In this document: in pieces, positions 4,209 through 21,034 of the stretch
How the letters are laid out: each line of letters begins with the position of its first letter
Numbering within the stretch: the stretch's first letter is position 1
NCBI GenBank assembly: GCA_965221125.1
Contig: CBDCRW010000007.1
Coordinates: 544,001 to 608,000 of the forward strand
Direction: 5' to 3'
DNA length: 64,000 nt
From: Alphaproteobacteria bacterium
GTDB taxonomy: Bacteria; Pseudomonadota; Alphaproteobacteria; UBA828
Notes under the pieces: model-generated
The model's input: the letters and a program-made list of their open reading frames with translations, nothing else
The model's database searches: none
What the model was told of the DNA's origin: nothing
Position numbers and translations under genes: made by a program

Positions 4209-6320
4209 ATGACCGACCAAGGCTCCGATCCTCCGGTCCTCGAGATCAACGGCCTCTGCCTCAGCTACTACACCCGCGCCGGCGAGGTGCCGGCGGTCTA
4301 CGACTTCGACCTCACCGTGGCCAAGGGGGAATCGGTGGGGCTCGTGGGCGAATCCGGCTGCGGCAAGTCCACCGTCGCCAACGGCATCATGCGCTACATG
4401 GGGCACAACGGCGACATCGTCGGCGGCACCATCAGGTTCAAGGGCCGCGACATGGCCGAGATGTCCGAGGAGGAGATCCGCCGCGTGCGCGGCAAGGACA
4501 TCGCCATGATCTACCAGGAGCCCATGGCGTCGCTCAACCCGAGCCTGACCATCGGCCAGCAGCTCATGGAAGTGCCGATGATCCACGAGGGGGCGAGCCG
4601 GGCCGAGGCCTTCGAGCGCGCCCACGACATGCTGGCGGCGGTGCACATCCCGGACCCGAACCGCCTGATGATCTCGTATCCGCACCAGGTCTCCGGCGGC
4701 CAGCAGCAGCGCGTGGTGATCGCCATGGCGCTGCTCTCGCGGCCGGCGCTGCTGCTGCTCGACGAGCCGACGACGGCGCTCGACGTGACGGTGGAGGCGG
4801 GCATCGTCGAGCTGATCGCCGAGCTCAGCCGCCAGACCGGCTCGTCGCTGCTCTACATCTCCCACAACCTCGGCCTGATGCTCGAGGTCTGCGACCGCAT
4901 CTGCGTGATGTATTCCGGCGAGGTGGTGGAGGAGGGGACGATCGATTCGATCTTCTCCTGGCCCAAGCACCCCTACACGCAAGGGCTCTTCGGCTGTATC
5001 CCGCTGCCGCACGCCGACAAGAACGCGCGCCCCCTCGTTTCCATCAAGGGCCAGCTGCCGCTGCCGCACGAGCGGCCCGAGGGCTGCAACTTCGGCCCAC
5101 GCTGCGGCTTCTTTCAGGGCGGGAAGTGCGACACGGGCCTGATCCCGATGGAGGGCGTGCACACGGACGACGATCCTGCCCATCGCGTGCGCTGCGAGCG
5201 CTGGAACGAGATCGACGTCTCCGAAGTGGTGCGCGTCGACGAGAGCCGCGAGCCCATCGCGGTCGGCGAGACGGTTCTCGAGGTCGCCGACATGCGCAAG
5301 TACTACAAGGTGCGCGACCGCTCGCTGGCGGCGCTCGTCTCGGGCGGCGCCGTGCGGGAAGTGAAGGCGAACGAGAGCATCAGCTTCCGCGCGGGCGAGG
5401 GCGAGACGGTCGCCATCGTGGGCGAATCCGGCTGCGGCAAGTCCACCTTCGCCAAGGTGCTGATGGGGCTGGAGACCGCGACCGACGGCGCGGTCACGCT
5501 GGACGGGACCGACCTCGGCAGCATTCCGGTCAACAAGCGCACGGCGGCGCAGCTCTCCTCGCTGCAGATGGTGTTCCAGAATCCCAACGACACGCTCAAC
5601 CCGTCCCACTCCGTCGGCTACCAGATCGGCCGGGTGATCAAGCGCTTCGGCATCGAACGCGATTCGATCAAGCGTCGGGAGCTGGTGTACGAGCTGCTGG
5701 ATACGGTGAAGCTGCCGCGCGAATTCATGACGCGGAAGCCGCGCCAGCTCTCCGGCGGGCAGAAGCAGCGCGTCGGCATCGCCCGCGCCTTTGCCGGCAA
5801 ACCGAAGACGGTGATCGCGGACGAGCCGATCTCGGCGCTGGACGTCTCGGTGGCGGCGGCGGTGACGGAGCTGCTGATGGACATCCAGCGCGAGCACCGC
5901 ACCACGCTGCTCTTCATCAGCCACGATCTCTCCGCCGTGCGCTATCTCTCGGACCGCGTGGTGGTGATGTACCTCGGCCAGATCATGGAGCGCGGCTCGA
6001 CGGAGCAGATCTTCGCGCCGCCCTATCATCCCTATACCGAGGCGCTGCTCTCCGCCGTGCCGATCGCGGACCCCGAGATCGAGCGGCGGCGCATCGTCCT
6101 GGAAGGCTCGCTGCCGAGTCCGCTCGACCCGCCCAAGGGGTGCCCGTTCTCCACGCGGTGCCCGCGCAAGCTCGGCGCCATCTGCGAGGAGGAGGCGCCG
6201 CCGCTGCAGACCAACGCCGAGCGCCACGTCATCGCCTGCCACATCCCGCTCGATGAGCTGCGCGAGGTCGAGCCCGTGATCTCCATTCCCGACCGCGACG
6301 AAGTCCACGCCGCCCAGTGA
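4209..6320 (+). CDS. Fused dual-domain ABC ATP-binding protein (DppD/DppF-like)
   Basis: Two GESGCGKST Walker A motifs, two SGGQ signatures, two HPYT oligopeptide C-terminal domains. Confidence 0.95.
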   Translation: MTDQGSDPPVLEINGLCLSYYTRAGEVPAVYDFDLTVAKGESVGLVGESGCGKSTVANGIMRYMGHNGDIVGGTIRFKGRDMAEMSEEEIRRVRGKDIAMIYQEPMASLNPSLTIGQQLMEVPMIHEGASRAEAFERAHDMLAAVHIPDPNRLMISYPHQVSGGQQQRVVIAMALLSRPALLLLDEPTTALDVTVEAGIVELIAELSRQTGSSLLYISHNLGLMLEVCDRICVMYSGEVVEEGTIDSIFSWPKHPYTQGLFGCIPLPHADKNARPLVSIKGQLPLPHERPEGCNFGPRCGFFQGGKCDTGLIPMEGVHTDDDPAHRVRCERWNEIDVSEVVRVDESREPIAVGETVLEVADMRKYYKVRDRSLAALVSGGAVREVKANESISFRAGEGETVAIVGESGCGKSTFAKVLMGLETATDGAVTLDGTDLGSIPVNKRTAAQLSSLQMVFQNPNDTLNPSHSVGYQIGRVIKRFGIERDSIKRRELVYELLDTVKLPREFMTRKPRQLSGGQKQRVGIARAFAGKPKTVIADEPISALDVSVAAAVTELLMDIQREHRTTLLFISHDLSAVRYLSDRVVVMYLGQIMERGSTEQIFAPPYHPYTEALLSAVPIADPEIERRRIVLEGSLPSPLDPPKGCPFSTRCPRKLGAICEEEAPPLQTNAERHVIACHIPLDELREVEPVISIPDRDEVHAAQ

Positions 6321-17572: not shown

Positions 17573-17885
17573 CTGTTGCGGGGCTTTTCGGAACCTCGTC
17601 AGCCGTTCTGCCCTATCTCACCTTGTCTCGGCTTGTCTCGGCTTATCTCGGAATTTTGGCCAAAAAAATGGGAATTACATACCTGACTTGACAGCCCCGC
17701 GCTGACCTCTCCCGCCCAAACCGACCTATATGCGCTGGGCGGGAGTGGGGGTTACCTCACCACAGCTCGTCACGTCATGCCACACCATGCCTTGACGCTG
17801 ACCTCTCCCGTCCACACCGCCCTATCAGCCTAGGGTGCGCTCGCTCTAATCCCCACCCTGTGGGCCGTAATCCGCATTTGCGGTC

Positions 17886-17914
17886 TTGACCCGAAATTCC
17901 TGTCACCGTATAAA
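17886..17914 (+). promoter_or_regulatory. sigma70-like promoter
   Basis: TTGACC-N17-TATAAA, predicted start about 17920. Confidence 0.7.
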
Positions 17915-17918
17915 CGGC

Positions 17919-18054
17919 CCGGCGGGCCGCTCTGGTCCGTCAGTGTTTCGGATCCGATTTCAGGGAGAGTCATTCGAGCTCGATTCAGAATGGTGATCGG
18001 CGCGGTCGTCGCTCCTGCCCTTTTGGAGGGGCGTTCACCGCATCAACCCGCCGG
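17919..18054 (+). ncRNA. Putative structured ncRNA A (family not recognised)
   Basis: Begins at the predicted TSS; CCGGCGGG/CCCGCCGG closing stem; inner stems CCGAT/ATCGG, GTCATTC/GAATGGT, GCGGT/ACCGC, GCCCTT/AGGGGC with G.U pairs on +; strong hairpin at 18097-18123. Confidence 0.5.
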
Positions 18055-18642
18055 TCTGGGCTAAGTCGGTTGGACCCGACCGCCCGTTTCCATCCCGCGC
18101 CGCCCTGCCACAGAGGGCGGCGCAACTCCTTTGTATAGAGGGATTCTCGCTCCCGTCAACCGGCATCCCCGCCCGTTCTTAACCCTTTGCTTTTACGTTA
18201 TTTTCGTAGTTTTGGGTTCCTTCTGCCGCTGACCTTATCGCTCTCGCGTATATGACTTTGACGCGCCTCCGCCTCGCGGTGCCCTCGACTCCATCCATCC
18301 CCGCCGTGCCGGACGTGCCCGCGCTGCCCACGGTTCCCGAAATCTCCGCAGAGGCCGCTGAGCGCCCCGTCAGCGCCGCTGCCGATTCTCCCACCCCTCG
18401 CCCTTCAGCCGTCGAGCGCGCCTCTCCACCCGGTTTTCGTCGCGTCCGCGTCCGCGACTAGGCCCCGCGTCCCCATTCTGCCGTCCCCCTGACGGTCCGC
18501 AAATTTCTTTGCGGACCATCTGCAACTTTCCCCGTCCTGATCATTATATGCCTGGGTGCAGTCGGCTCTCCCTGCGCTCGCCCCTCCGCTCTCCCCGCGC
18601 GATTACCGCCAAACTTCTCAGCGGTGGCAGCGAATCCGGGGC

Positions 18643-19614
18643 ATGCCCCAAGCTGCACCCGGCAAGTTCTATCGTCAGGGCATCTCCTGGCCCGAACTGT
18701 TCGCCCGCTTCCCCGACGACGCGGCCGCCGAGGCGTGGTTCGAGGAGCAACGTTGGGGTACTCCTGGTCAGCCGTCCTACTGCCCGCTTTGTGGTGACAC
18801 GGAGCGCCTCCGCCCCACCCCCAACCGCCGCCCGCTCCCCTACTGGTGTGGCGCTTGTCGGTCGTACTTCTCCGTCCGCACCAACACCGTCATGCACCGT
18901 TCCAAGCTCCCGCTCCAGAAATGGGTCATCGCCATCTACCTCTGGGCCACCTCGCTCAAGGGCGTGTCCTCGATGAAGCTCCACCGCGACCTCGGCATTA
19001 CGCAGAAGTCCGCGTGGTTCCTCGCCCAGCGGCTGCGTGCCGCTTGGTCCGCCCCTGCCGACGCGCCGCCCCCGCCGCCCTTGTTCGCCGGTCCCGTGGA
19101 GGTTGACGAGACCTACCTCGGCGGCAAAGAGCGGAACAAACACGCCAAGAAGAAGTTGCGCGCCGGGCGGGGTGCCGTCGGCAAGACCCCCGTTGTTGGT
19201 GCGCTCGATCGCACCGCCAACCAGATCGCTCTCGCCGTGCTGCCCTCGACCGACCGTCCCACCCTGCACGGCTTTATCGAGCAGCACGTGCAACCGGGTG
19301 CCCAAGTGTATACCGACGAGGCCAGCGCCTATCAGCGCATGCCGTTCCCGCACGACGCTGTGAACCACTCGGTCGGCGAGTACGTCCGCGACCAAGCGCA
19401 CACCAACGGCATCGAGTCCTTCTGGGCGACCTTGAAGCGCGCCTACGCCGGCACCTACCACCACATCTCCCCCGAGCACCTCCACCGCTACGTCGGCGAG
19501 TTCGCCGCCCGCCACAACCTCCGCACCCAAGATACCGAGGCTATGATGGCCGAGGCGGTGGCGCAGATGATCGGCAAGCGCCTCACCTACAAAGAACTGA
19601 TCGGGAAGAACTGA
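18643..19614 (+). CDS. IS1595-family (ISXO2-like) DDE transposase
   Basis: N-terminal zinc ribbon CPLCG...WCGAC, HTH region, VEVDETYLGG, VYTDE, HTNGIESFWATLKR. Confidence 0.95.
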   Translation: MPQAAPGKFYRQGISWPELFARFPDDAAAEAWFEEQRWGTPGQPSYCPLCGDTERLRPTPNRRPLPYWCGACRSYFSVRTNTVMHRSKLPLQKWVIAIYLWATSLKGVSSMKLHRDLGITQKSAWFLAQRLRAAWSAPADAPPPPPLFAGPVEVDETYLGGKERNKHAKKKLRAGRGAVGKTPVVGALDRTANQIALAVLPSTDRPTLHGFIEQHVQPGAQVYTDEASAYQRMPFPHDAVNHSVGEYVRDQAHTNGIESFWATLKRAYAGTYHHISPEHLHRYVGEFAARHNLRTQDTEAMMAEAVAQMIGKRLTYKELIGKN

Positions 19615-19752
19615 CTTTATGCGAAGATTATTCCTTGTGGAAAACTTGTATTGTGTGGATAACTTGAATCGACTATCGTTGGGTTTTTAACGGTTTGTTA
19701 GACTCGAGTTTGGTCGAAGGTGTCGGTGGGGCCGCGAGGCTCGTCCGGTGTT

Positions 19753-19843
19753 TGGCGGAGGAGGTGGGATTCGAACCCACGGTACGGCACAGCCGTACAC
19801 CGGTTGCCTAGACCGGCGCCTTCGACCGCTCAGCCACTCCTCC
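19753..19843 (-). tRNA. tRNA with serine-type body and AGG (Pro) anticodon, CCA encoded
   Basis: GGAGGAG TG GCT GAGCGGTCGAA GGC G CCGGT CTAGGCA ACCGG T GTACGGC TGT GCCGTAC C GTGGG TTCGAAT CCCAC CTCCTCC G CCA; fully paired cloverleaf, long variable arm, G73. Confidence 0.9.
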
Positions 19844-19855
19844 GCGACCTTAGAC

Positions 19856-19885
19856 ACCATAACTTGATCGCGTGGCGGTCGTCAA
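19856..19885 (-). promoter_or_regulatory. sigma70-like promoter for the tRNA(AGG) gene
   Basis: Minus strand TTGACG-N18-TATGGT, ending 12 nt before tRNA G1. Confidence 0.55.
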
Positions 19886-19982
19886 CGCAACAGGTCGCCG
19901 GATACGCCAGATGTAGCAAGCCGGCGCCGGCTTGCTACATCCCGCCTGCCTCGTGAGGCGCATCAGTTCCAGCATCTAGCGA

Positions 19983-20011
19983 TTGCGCCCGCATTGTGCC
20001 TCCGTTACGCT
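19983..20011 (+). promoter_or_regulatory. sigma70-like promoter
   Basis: TTGCGC-N17-TACGCT, predicted start about 20018, matching the 5' end of the downstream stem. Confidence 0.5.
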
Positions 20012-20018
20012 CTCCCTC

Positions 20019-20144
20019 GTCAATGACACGCGGAGCCCGCACGTCGGGTCGCCCGCCGAATACAACAGCCGCACGACCCGGCACGGGGTAGCTCCCCGCG
20101 CTTGGCGAATAGGCGGGACTTCACGCTATCCGTGTGTCGTTGAC
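20019..20144 (+). ncRNA. Putative pseudoknotted ncRNA B (family not recognised)
   Basis: 16-bp closing stem 20019-20034/20129-20144 whose two non-Watson-Crick pairs are G.U on +; inner stem 20043-20051/20074-20082; loop CCCGCC complementary to GGCGGG at 20112-20117. Confidence 0.55.
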
Positions 20145-20213
20145 ACGGCCCGGCACCCGCCGGGCCGCGAGCCGCCCTATATCGGTCGGTTCCAGCGGGC
20201 AGCGGAGGGCGAC

Positions 20214-20588
20214 ATGTGGAAAGCCATTACTCTCAGTCTAGTTCTGGCCTTGAGTTCGGCTGCGCCGACCTGGGCGCAGGATTCTGGCAACGAATTCGTC
20301 ATCACTGTGCCAACAGACTTGGATACGCGCTTGTTCTTTGTGGCGGAGACGCTATCTCCCCATAGGGTGCAAGTGGGGTCGCCGTACAATTATGGTTCGA
20401 TGTACGAAGGTGAGCGGCAACGGCTGGTTCAATTCGCTCGCTGGGGGTGTCAACTCTATGGTCGGGATCGTCTTGCTTATGTCGGAATACAAACCAATGA
20501 TCAACGTTGTGACGAAATGGGTGCGGCCGCCGCCGAGCGCGATCCTCATTGCTACCACATCCACACCTTCGTGTGCGTTGAGCGGTGA
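20214..20588 (+). CDS. Hypothetical secreted protein (124 aa), transposon passenger
   Basis: GGAGGG RBS; signal peptide MWKAITLSLVLALSSAAPTWA; 4 Cys; AT-richer codon usage than host genes. Confidence 0.7.
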   Translation: MWKAITLSLVLALSSAAPTWAQDSGNEFVITVPTDLDTRLFFVAETLSPHRVQVGSPYNYGSMYEGERQRLVQFARWGCQLYGRDRLAYVGIQTNDQRCDEMGAAAAERDPHCYHIHTFVCVER

Positions 20589-20628
20589 GTCGAGTCTCTC
20601 GGCTCGACCTGATGCGCGCCAGTGTTGA

Positions 20629-20721
20629 TGGCGGCGCGTCTAGGAGTTGAACCTAAAACGCCCTGGGGGACGTTCGCTCGGATTGTCAATCCGGCCTCCG
20701 GACCGCCGGAGATGGCGCGCC
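20629..20721 (-). tRNA. allo-tRNA-like gene (8/4 fold, Sec-type D arm, long variable arm), anticodon GAC (Val), CCA encoded
   Basis: GGCGCGCC AT CTCCGG CGGT CCGGAG G CCGGA TTGACAA TCCGA GC GAACGTCC CCCA GGGCGTTT TAGG TTCAACT CCTA GACGCGCC G CCA; one C.A mismatch in the acceptor stem and one at the top of the anticodon stem. Confidence 0.75.
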
Positions 20722-21034
20722 GCCATCTCCGGGAACCCACAATGTAATTCGCAGATCGCTCTGCTTCGCGCTAAGTGATTGATTCCACGTGTCAAGTCAG
20801 GTATATAAATCCCAAAAAAATGTCCTGCCAAACCGAGATACGCCGCATGGGAGCGCCGCATGTTCTCTGTGTGTTCCATGCGGGGAGGTCGCGGATATGG
20901 TCGTCTAAGGCGGCATCGCGGATGCTCACATCGCGGATGCGCCGGCTGCGTTTCGCCCGCCGCCCGACTATCCTGAACGCCCGCCGGAACGGTTCCGCCC
21001 GCGCCGCACAACCCCACAGCCGGAGGCCAGACGC

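Follow-up and report, generated by a model that had tools for sequence, protein, structure and literature searches.

The closest described relatives of the gene reported here are the allo-tRNAs of Mukai et al. 2017 (PMC5389517). In the sections of that paper considered here, these tRNAs have a 12-bp branch split 8/4 or 9/3. Their D arm resembles that of selenocysteine tRNA (tRNA-Sec), the stem being long and the loop a tetraloop; the variable arm is long, the anticodon stem is extended, position 73 is G or U, and most anticodons are not those of Ser. The same sections report a Val anticodon on an 8/4 body once, name GCG among the commonest anticodons and describe that allo-tRNAs with Leu anticodons put Ser into E. 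coli protein. As to mobile-element context, these sections and the consulted parts of a review (PMC7609411) mention only a pseudogene overlapping a transposon-related open reading frame (ORF) and a loose toxin-antitoxin association. Here, we describe a gene at positions 20629-20721, minus strand, of a 64,000-nucleotide stretch of an alphaproteobacterial genome of the UBA828 lineage (contig CBDCRW010000007.1, 544,001 to 608,000; the whole stretch is referred to as the window). Judged from its sequence, the gene is a structurally conserved (8/4) allo-tRNA, and we liken it to the published ones by described features and not by aligned sequences. Every allo-tRNA feature named in the considered sections of PMC5389517 is present, including a pyrimidine at the last D-loop position (Y20), and the 8/4 branch, the Sec-like D arm, the long variable arm, G73 and a mismatched anticodon are common to both. 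The published allo-tRNAs likewise surfaced as high-scoring "false positive" matches of a tRNA-Sec model, and an association with transposon-related genes was noted there.

20629-20721, minus strand: (8/4) allo-tRNA-type gene with anticodon GAC, 93 nt with encoded CCA, based on the tRNA-Sec model, the minimum-free-energy fold and the comparison with a homologue in the congeneric genome G041

Numbering tRNA positions from the 5' G at window position 20721, we found an acceptor stem of 8 bp (positions 1-8 with 82-89) with a single C.A at pair 7:83, a linker of 2 nt (AU) and a D arm with a 6-bp stem and the 4-nt loop CGGU. The anticodon loop UUGACAA, which gives the anticodon GAC, is carried by a stem of more than 5 bp, composed of five pairs, a one-base bulge and the closing pair 27:46, with a second C.A at 28:44. 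The variable arm comprises 20 nt (8 bp and a 4-nt loop), the T arm has the loop UUCAACU on a 4-bp stem (pairs 67-70:78-81), and the 3' end consists of G73 followed by a CCA encoded in the DNA. This cloverleaf is the minimum-free-energy fold of the 93 nt (-43.9 kcal/mol, z = -3.1; 1 of 200 shuffles folded as well). A perfect hairpin of 12 bp that the leader could form with tRNA positions 5-16 was considered as a competitor of the cloverleaf and rejected; the precursor fold keeps the cloverleaf, and the G041 homologue does not have the hairpin.

The Rfam model for tRNA-Sec (RF01852) scored the gene at 52.9 bits (gathering cut-off 47, E = 7.9e-8 over the whole window) and outscored the general tRNA model in the Rfam clan competition. 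Because RF01852 also gives 51-52 bits to two tRNA-Ser genes of the host, this score alone is not specific. A ninth acceptor pair is possible between C-1 and G73, the helix running on for six pairs into leader and trailer, and Rfam's own alignment takes the gene as 9/4; sequence alone fixes neither the mature 5' end nor, with it, whether the gene is 8/4 or 9/4. An earlier sequence-only reading of the window had proposed an 8/4 allo-tRNA-like gene with a Sec-type D arm and a Val anticodon and suggested a covariance-model search for it. All structural elements that it listed are present in the sequence, the gene passes the cut-off of the tRNA-Sec model, and the type that it named is supported. 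Its expectation that standard annotators would miss the gene is borne out for ARAGORN, which gives no call at this position in either the window or the whole-genome scan, but not for the Rfam/Infernal scan, which finds the gene.

We next compared the gene with its sole detected homologue, which lies in G041 and carries the anticodon GCG (Arg); 59 of 93 alignment columns are identical (66%-identical). Two covariance models were used, R1 built from the candidate alone and R2 from the candidate and the G041 homologue. Among 49 genomes of the order, R1 matched in two, the window's own genome (G000) and G041, where the homologue obtained 61.6 bits with R1 and 56 bits with the Rfam tRNA-Sec model. 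A blastn search with the 93 nt against the same 49 genomes found no full-length relative in the other 48 and partial matches of 28-37 nt in two. R2 exceeded 100 bits only in these two genomes out of 21 of the genus, and the 17 further genus genomes with a match each scored 38.4 bits, which is the score of the host tRNA-Ser(GCU).

In the alignment of the two sequences with their flanks, pairing holds in 95.9% of cells, and 9 of the 38 pairs carry changes on both sides yet still pair, compared with 0-3 double-changed pairs when the 3' partners are slid by 1-3 columns. Compensatory changes, for which the sequence-only reading had proposed to check homologues, are found. They are spread over the acceptor stem (three pairs), the D stem (one), the anticodon stem (two), the T stem (two of four) and the leader-trailer extension described below (one). 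Two sequences are a small sample and the shuffle control does not give a probability; even so, with this many double changes and with the results of the slid controls, structural constraint is the plain reading of the alignment. The compensated pairs include the eighth acceptor pair 8:82 (C-G here, G-C in G041), which together with the two T-stem pairs favors 8/4 over 7/5. The D arm of the homologue has the loop GGGU, and its variable arm retains 5 bp with a 7-nt loop. G73 is kept, CCG is encoded in place of CCA, and the acceptor opens with GGAGGG, as the host tRNA-Ser genes do. At 7:83, the C.A of this gene corresponds to U.G in G041, with a pyrimidine on the 5' side and a purine on the 3' side in both. 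An A+.C wobble shares the geometry of G.U, and the 7:83 wobble may be a conserved feature rather than damage.

A further property of the gene lies outside the mature sequence:

20722-20727, minus strand: 5' leader pairing with G73-CCA-UC (window 20627-20632), which extends the acceptor helix by 6 bp; 12-nt inverted repeat, 100% complementary

The precursor fold extends this helix further still. In G041, leader and trailer form five pairs, of which -4:76 has changed on both sides (U-A here, C-G there). A tRNA(GGA) carried by a second insertion sequence (IS) of the window's genome (locus L015, see below) has six such pairs, and a tRNA near a transposase at locus L049 has ten, offset by two bases. 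Among the ARAGORN calls of the window's genome, runs of leader-trailer pairs are at most three long in 53 of 56; the exceptions are the two copies of the IS-borne tRNA(GGA) (6) and one probable false positive (5). The feature occurs neither in the odd tRNA next to our candidate (run of 2) nor in a further IS-borne tRNA at locus L079 (run of 1). The helix may be a processing signal, a maturation block or a trace of the origin of such cassettes.

With respect to amino acid identity, G73 occurs in all host tRNA-Ser genes and A73 in all three host tRNA-Val genes, which are 75-76 nt long. The allo-tRNA has no G3:U70 pair and thus no Ala identity, and Leu and Tyr tRNAs of bacteria use A73. Based on G73 and the lack of G3:U70, Ser identity would be the only fit among long-arm tRNAs. 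No relative of the candidate was found among the host tRNAs. An ordinary tRNA-Val was rejected on account of G73, the 8/4 body and the 20-nt variable arm.

A selenocysteine tRNA was likewise rejected, in view of the sense anticodon GAC, the 12-bp branch and the lack of a SelA match in the genome (92% complete), in which the covariance-model matches also include no true tRNA-Sec. With bacterial tRNA-Sec (RF01852; loci L097-L100 and L144) the candidate shares the 8-bp acceptor, A as the first linker base, the 6-bp D stem with an NGGU loop, the long arm and G73, but its T stem has 4 bp and its anticodon is GAC, whereas tRNA-Sec combines a T stem of 5 bp (13 bp in total) with UCA. When 151 sampled genomes of the class were searched with R2, 53 gave matches at E <= 1e-4. 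The top four matches other than self, the only ones examined individually, are genuine alphaproteobacterial tRNA-Sec genes with UCA, an 8/5 branch (13 bp), a D arm like that of the candidate and a 5-bp T stem; below them, scores were at most 41 bits, like those of host tRNA-Ser. Overall, R2 scores were 42-53 bits for true alphaproteobacterial tRNA-Sec and about 38 bits for tRNA-Ser.

The gene lies near the right end of an IS1595-family insertion sequence, which holds both odd tRNAs of this region:

17670-20813, plus strand: IS1595-family insertion sequence with both odd tRNAs, 3144 bp, delimited by inverted repeats and flanks
17662-17669, no strand: target-site duplication, left copy, 8 bp AAAAAAAT, read from the flanks
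20814-20821, no strand: target-site duplication, right copy, 8 bp AAAAAAAT, read from the flanks
18556-19614, plus strand: intact transposase ORF, 352 aa, true start maybe further in (Pfam DDE_Tnp_IS1595 1.3e-43; NCBIfam transpos_IS1595 8.9e-56)
19753-19843, minus strand: neighbouring 7/5 class-II Ser-type tRNA, anticodon AGG, G73, CCA (ARAGORN; Rfam tRNA 50.7 bits)
20043-20164, plus strand: repeat also present in other IS1595 copies (Rfam sRNA-Xcc1, weak match of 33.7 bits; cut-off 53)
20214-20588, plus strand: hypothetical ORF of 124 aa with a signal-peptide-like N-terminus, convergent with the allo-tRNA (from translation; G+C at third codon positions 0.58)

The terminal inverted repeats (17669-17693 and 20790-20814) are 25 nt long and 92% complementary, and 8 bp is the usual length of target duplications in this family (ISfinder). 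Like IS1595-family elements with passenger genes (ISfinder groups such as ISNwi1), this one has a DDE_Tnp_IS1595 transposase, ends of the type GGG/GGA..ATTA and an 8-bp duplication; here, the passengers are tRNA genes. From left to right, the element consists of its left end, about 860 nt without features, the transposase, the neighbour tRNA, the repeat, the small ORF, the allo-tRNA and the right end. A scan for RNA families gave no match worth noting in 17694-18555, and no synthetase gene is present within the element. The intact transposase, the repeats and the target duplication suggest that the element is recent and probably still mobile.

The 124-aa ORF has no Pfam or NCBIfam match, a best protein-atlas score of 0.86 and no paralogue in the genome or the loci. 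The repeat at 20043-20164 has several copies in the genome at about 78% identity, one of them in the L015 element, and one more lies in the G041 element. The insertion adjoins a short repeat (17603-17670) that occurs many times genome-wide at 85-100% identity, and its target looks like a hairpin, the flanks on both sides being inverted copies. At 20742-20753, 20 nt upstream of the allo-tRNA, we noticed a 12-nt partial copy (one mismatch) of the outer end of the element, either a relic of another end or a chance match.

To compare copies of the element from metagenomes, contigs of four public runs, X5-X8, were placed on 19650-20830. In X6 (labelled marine metagenome), a 387-nt contig covers 20494-20818 with 17 differences and 2 gaps, and in X5 (labelled sponge metagenome) the same interval is covered in two pieces. 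The X5 and X6 contigs show at least 2 differences in the 93-nt tRNA and at least 8 in the 135 nt downstream, a contrast that we regard as a weak sign of constraint. The tRNA differences listed are T>C at 20678 in both, which turns 28:44 into C-G, and one at 20663, found in X6 alone, where it affects the pair that closes the loop of the variable arm. In X7 and X8, alignment of the contigs stops at 20192 or 20211 and starts again at 20795, within the right end, leaving the small ORF and the allo-tRNA unaligned:

20212-20794, no strand: module with the allo-tRNA and the small ORF, unaligned in related copies (contig joints 20192->20795 in X7, 20211->20795 in X8)

These joints indicate that the allo-tRNA is part of a module which is absent or replaced in some copies of the element. 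Very many contigs of X5-X8 cover the repeat at 20043-20164, with sharp ends at 20043 and at 20117/20118.

The neighbour tRNA is of a different class from the allo-tRNA, as the sequence-only reading had held. It has the ordinary 7/5 cloverleaf of a class-II tRNA and shares 82.7% identity with the host tRNA-Ser(CGA); a promoter-like site lies at 19885-19856, and the anticodon loop, CUAGGCA, has A34 and a pyrimidine (C) at position 37. An X7 contig has the anticodon AAG instead of AGG (19808 C>T), so that different missense anticodons occur on the body of the neighbour tRNA in related copies of the element. A perfect 32-nt palindrome (16 + 16, no spacer) at 19910-19941 lies just upstream of the promoter-like site. 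Elsewhere in the genome, a tRNA-Ser(CGA)-like sequence whose anticodon loop has six bases and whose seventh acceptor pair is A.C (G000:C3:534997-535084, plus strand) is probably a damaged paralogue, and the other odd ARAGORN calls mostly resemble false positives with poor stems.

Other IS1595 elements also carry tRNAs. The G041 homologue itself lies within such an element, which has perfect 24-nt repeats and an 8-bp duplication and whose transposase is 52% identical to that of the window; the tRNA, oriented away from the transposase, is located about 160 nt upstream of it. The second IS1595-like element of the window's genome, at L015 (repeats 2246-2273 and 5680-5707; no target duplication found), carries in the same slot a 76-nt 7/5 tRNA with anticodon GGA, U73 and no Ser-type body (L015 2478-2550, minus strand, equal to G000:C7:85977-86049; Rfam tRNA 38.9 bits). 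In both elements, the tRNA lies 80-160 nt upstream of the transposase and divergent from it. A 100% identical copy of the L015 tRNA(GGA) stands at the start of contig C5. The 9-nt motif GAUAAAUAG is common to the leaders of the L015 tRNA(GGA) and the G041 allo-tRNA; an alignment of the upstream regions yielded no common promoter.

IS1595-type transposases occur in 19 of 21 genomes of the genus, and ARAGORN calls a tRNA within 1.5 kb at 4 of the 30 transposase loci of the genus (26 without). Two of these are from the window's own genome, the third (L081) is an ordinary-looking tRNA-Pro, and the fourth (L079 1166-1250, minus strand, genome G035) is a class-II tRNA with a long arm, G73, CCA and anticodon GUU (Asn; Rfam tRNA 55.8 bits) inside an IS1595 element of about 2.2 kb with repeats and the 8-bp duplication TTTCAAAG. 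At more distant transposase loci of public genomes, a tRNA was called in 3 of 45 (42 without). These are a 95-nt tRNA-like gene with anticodon UGC and a long arm that lies inside its element and scores below the Rfam cut-off (L026 6174-6268, minus strand), a 76-nt tRNA(GGA) near the transposase (L049 5635-5707, plus strand; 69.4 bits), and normal tRNAs more than 3 kb from the transposase (L020). The L026 and L049 loci belong to other phyla. Most IS1595 copies carry no tRNA, yet irregular tRNAs recur as passengers of this IS family.

The neighbour and the L079 tRNA(GUU) share with the candidate the long arm, G73, a non-Ser anticodon and the IS1595 passenger state, but both are ordinary 7/5 cloverleaves derived from tRNA-Ser, unlike the candidate, which has no relative among host tRNAs. 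The sequence-only reading had seen in the two structurally different tRNAs selection for function rather than a single chance capture. Since both are passengers of one element, acquired as separate modules, they speak for repeated capture and not for host selection; that IS1595 elements have repeatedly captured odd tRNAs is supported, whereas selection by the host is not shown.

Beyond these elements, R1 found no allo-tRNA at the 45 transposase-related loci, and R2 on five genomes with related transposases found one true tRNA-Sec. In 151 genomes of the class of L022 (record titled Terriglobia), R1 gave matches in four, two of which are class-II tRNAs with G73, anticodons UAC and UAU, and ordinary D arms. 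These two, L061 1501-1588 (minus strand; UAC, Val) and L063 1501-1588 (plus strand; UAU, Ile), may be candidates for the allo-tRNA(UAU)-like group in the considered sections of PMC5389517. Scans with IUPAC patterns gave no match in metagenome contigs or viral contigs, and blastn of the allo-tRNA against plasmids and phages gave none either.

As a working model, we propose an IS1595-borne allo-tRNA that is charged with Ser and inserts Ser at GUC and GUU codons, and we consider the chances of this full chain, including charging and decoding, to be about even. The precursor would be transcribed with its leader and trailer lengthening the acceptor helix, and would then be trimmed to about 93 nt. 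Seryl-tRNA synthetase would charge the product via the long variable arm and G73, ignoring the anticodon, and the outcome would be a low level of Ser at GUC/GUU codons in competition with the host tRNA-Val(GAC). Ser identity, a seryl-tRNA synthetase that ignores the anticodon and the E. coli precedent together make this the likeliest action.

Several observations weigh against this model. In this genome's long ORFs, about 33 codons in every 1000 are GUC, and because the codon is so common, an efficient Ser-tRNA(GAC) would be costly. Valyl-tRNA synthetase reads the anticodon and might charge the allo-tRNA(GAC) with Val despite G73. A simple sigma-70 scan found no promoter upstream of the allo-tRNA, whereas the neighbour tRNA has one, and no RNA run is among the public sequencing runs listed as containing the stretch. 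The covariation comes from just two sequences, and the C.A at 28:44 is private to this copy, the pair being C-G in G041 and in the X5 and X6 contigs. In the predicted precursor, the CCA is paired with the leader, and the fact that G041 keeps this pairing although it encodes CCG suggests that the helix, rather than a ready 3' end, is under selection. Finally, six allo-tRNA(UAU) variants were inactive in E. coli according to the considered sections of PMC5389517.

The leader-trailer helix lends itself to a different explanation, namely a conserved RNA that has no part in translation and is instead of use to the insertion sequence, or is a tRNA-like RNA with a regulatory or toxic role, with selection on the helix instead of an aminoacylated 3' end. 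We regard this as possible, though not probable. It would account for the CCA-covering helix of 5-6 bp shared by the candidate, its G041 homologue and the IS-borne tRNA(GGA), and the 10-bp one with an offset in L049, a feature rare among host calls, as well as for the double change at -4:76, the CCG of G041 and the divergent position upstream of the transposase in G041 and L015. However, 42 of 45 and 26 of 30 related IS1595 loci have no ARAGORN tRNA, the slot takes unrelated tRNA types on either side of the transposase, which is the behaviour of cargo, and U33, A37, the T loop and the D-loop GG are all retained as in working tRNAs. A hitch-hiking gene in decay, that is, a pseudogene without present function, seems unlikely to us. 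The sequence-only reading had named the two C.A mismatches as potential marks of a pseudogene; of these, only the private 28:44 looks like damage, since 7:83, a U.G in G041, is maybe a conserved wobble. That neither a promoter nor an RNA run was found would also fit decay, and an allo-tRNA pseudogene adjoining or overlapping a transposon-related ORF is on record in the considered sections of PMC5389517. On the other hand, the remaining stems are all intact, the differences listed for the X5 and X6 contigs are fewer in the tRNA than downstream of it, and transposase, repeats and target duplication are intact.

The two other explanations concern the identity of the tRNA. Charging with Val, or with both Val and Ser, would turn the gene into an unusual and largely harmless extra tRNA-Val, which would explain why the cell tolerates it despite the frequency of GUC. 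A35 and C36 are the main identity elements of valyl-tRNA synthetase, and the anticodon GAC supplies both. We nevertheless think this improbable, given G73 as opposed to A73 in all three host tRNA-Val genes, an 8/4 body and long variable arm far from those of tRNA-Val, and a homologue that bears the Arg anticodon GCG on the same body, so that the body does not track the anticodon. A degenerate selC with a mutated anticodon would be in line with the RF01852 cut-off being passed and with R2 scoring true tRNA-Sec above tRNA-Ser, but it appears highly improbable in light of the 4-bp T stem here and in G041, kept by compensatory change, the sense anticodons of both family members, and a genome in which neither SelA nor a true tRNA-Sec was found.

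Compared with the allo-tRNAs in the considered sections of PMC5389517, our candidate differs in its location, an alphaproteobacterial IS1595-family element that is intact and delimited and has a target duplication, and in its leader-trailer extension of the acceptor helix, which those sections do not mention. In the searched literature, as far as titles and abstracts tell, we found no description of tRNA passengers in IS1595 elements or of the leader-trailer helix, and no paper on bacterial mistranslation tRNAs carried by transposons. Thus, the tRNA class itself is known, while the clean placement of allo-tRNAs and missense tRNAs inside IS1595 elements and the leader-trailer helix appear to be new. 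Dedicated mistranslation pairs such as tRNA-ProX/ProRSx of Streptomyces likewise involve a natural tRNA with a mismatch between anticodon and identity, but there the tRNA comes with its own synthetase, and this element has none.

The IS1595-borne cassettes seen so far comprise allo-tRNAs with anticodons GAC and GCG, Ser-type tRNAs with AGG, AAG and GUU, and a 7/5 tRNA with GGA. We speculate, as a doubtful extension of the working model, that IS1595 elements of this lineage and of related marine and sponge-associated bacteria are vehicles for exchangeable "mistranslation cassettes", in several of which the leader-trailer helix, by masking the CCA, would gate maturation and, with it, proteome-wide recoding. 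If the gene were silent or uncharged, it would be no more than a well-documented example of a tRNA-like passenger. Most knowledge of allo-tRNAs comes from metagenomic fragments, and the present locus adds a complete genomic setting with the boundaries of the element, a second, structurally unrelated missense tRNA in the same element, and a compensated homologue with another anticodon in a sister element. Whether missense tRNAs spread on transposons and whether a precursor structure keeps such a tRNA harmless thereby become testable questions, and the 8/4 body may be of interest to engineers of orthogonal tRNAs. If the speculation is true, missense decoding would be a horizontally mobile and conditionally deployed trait.

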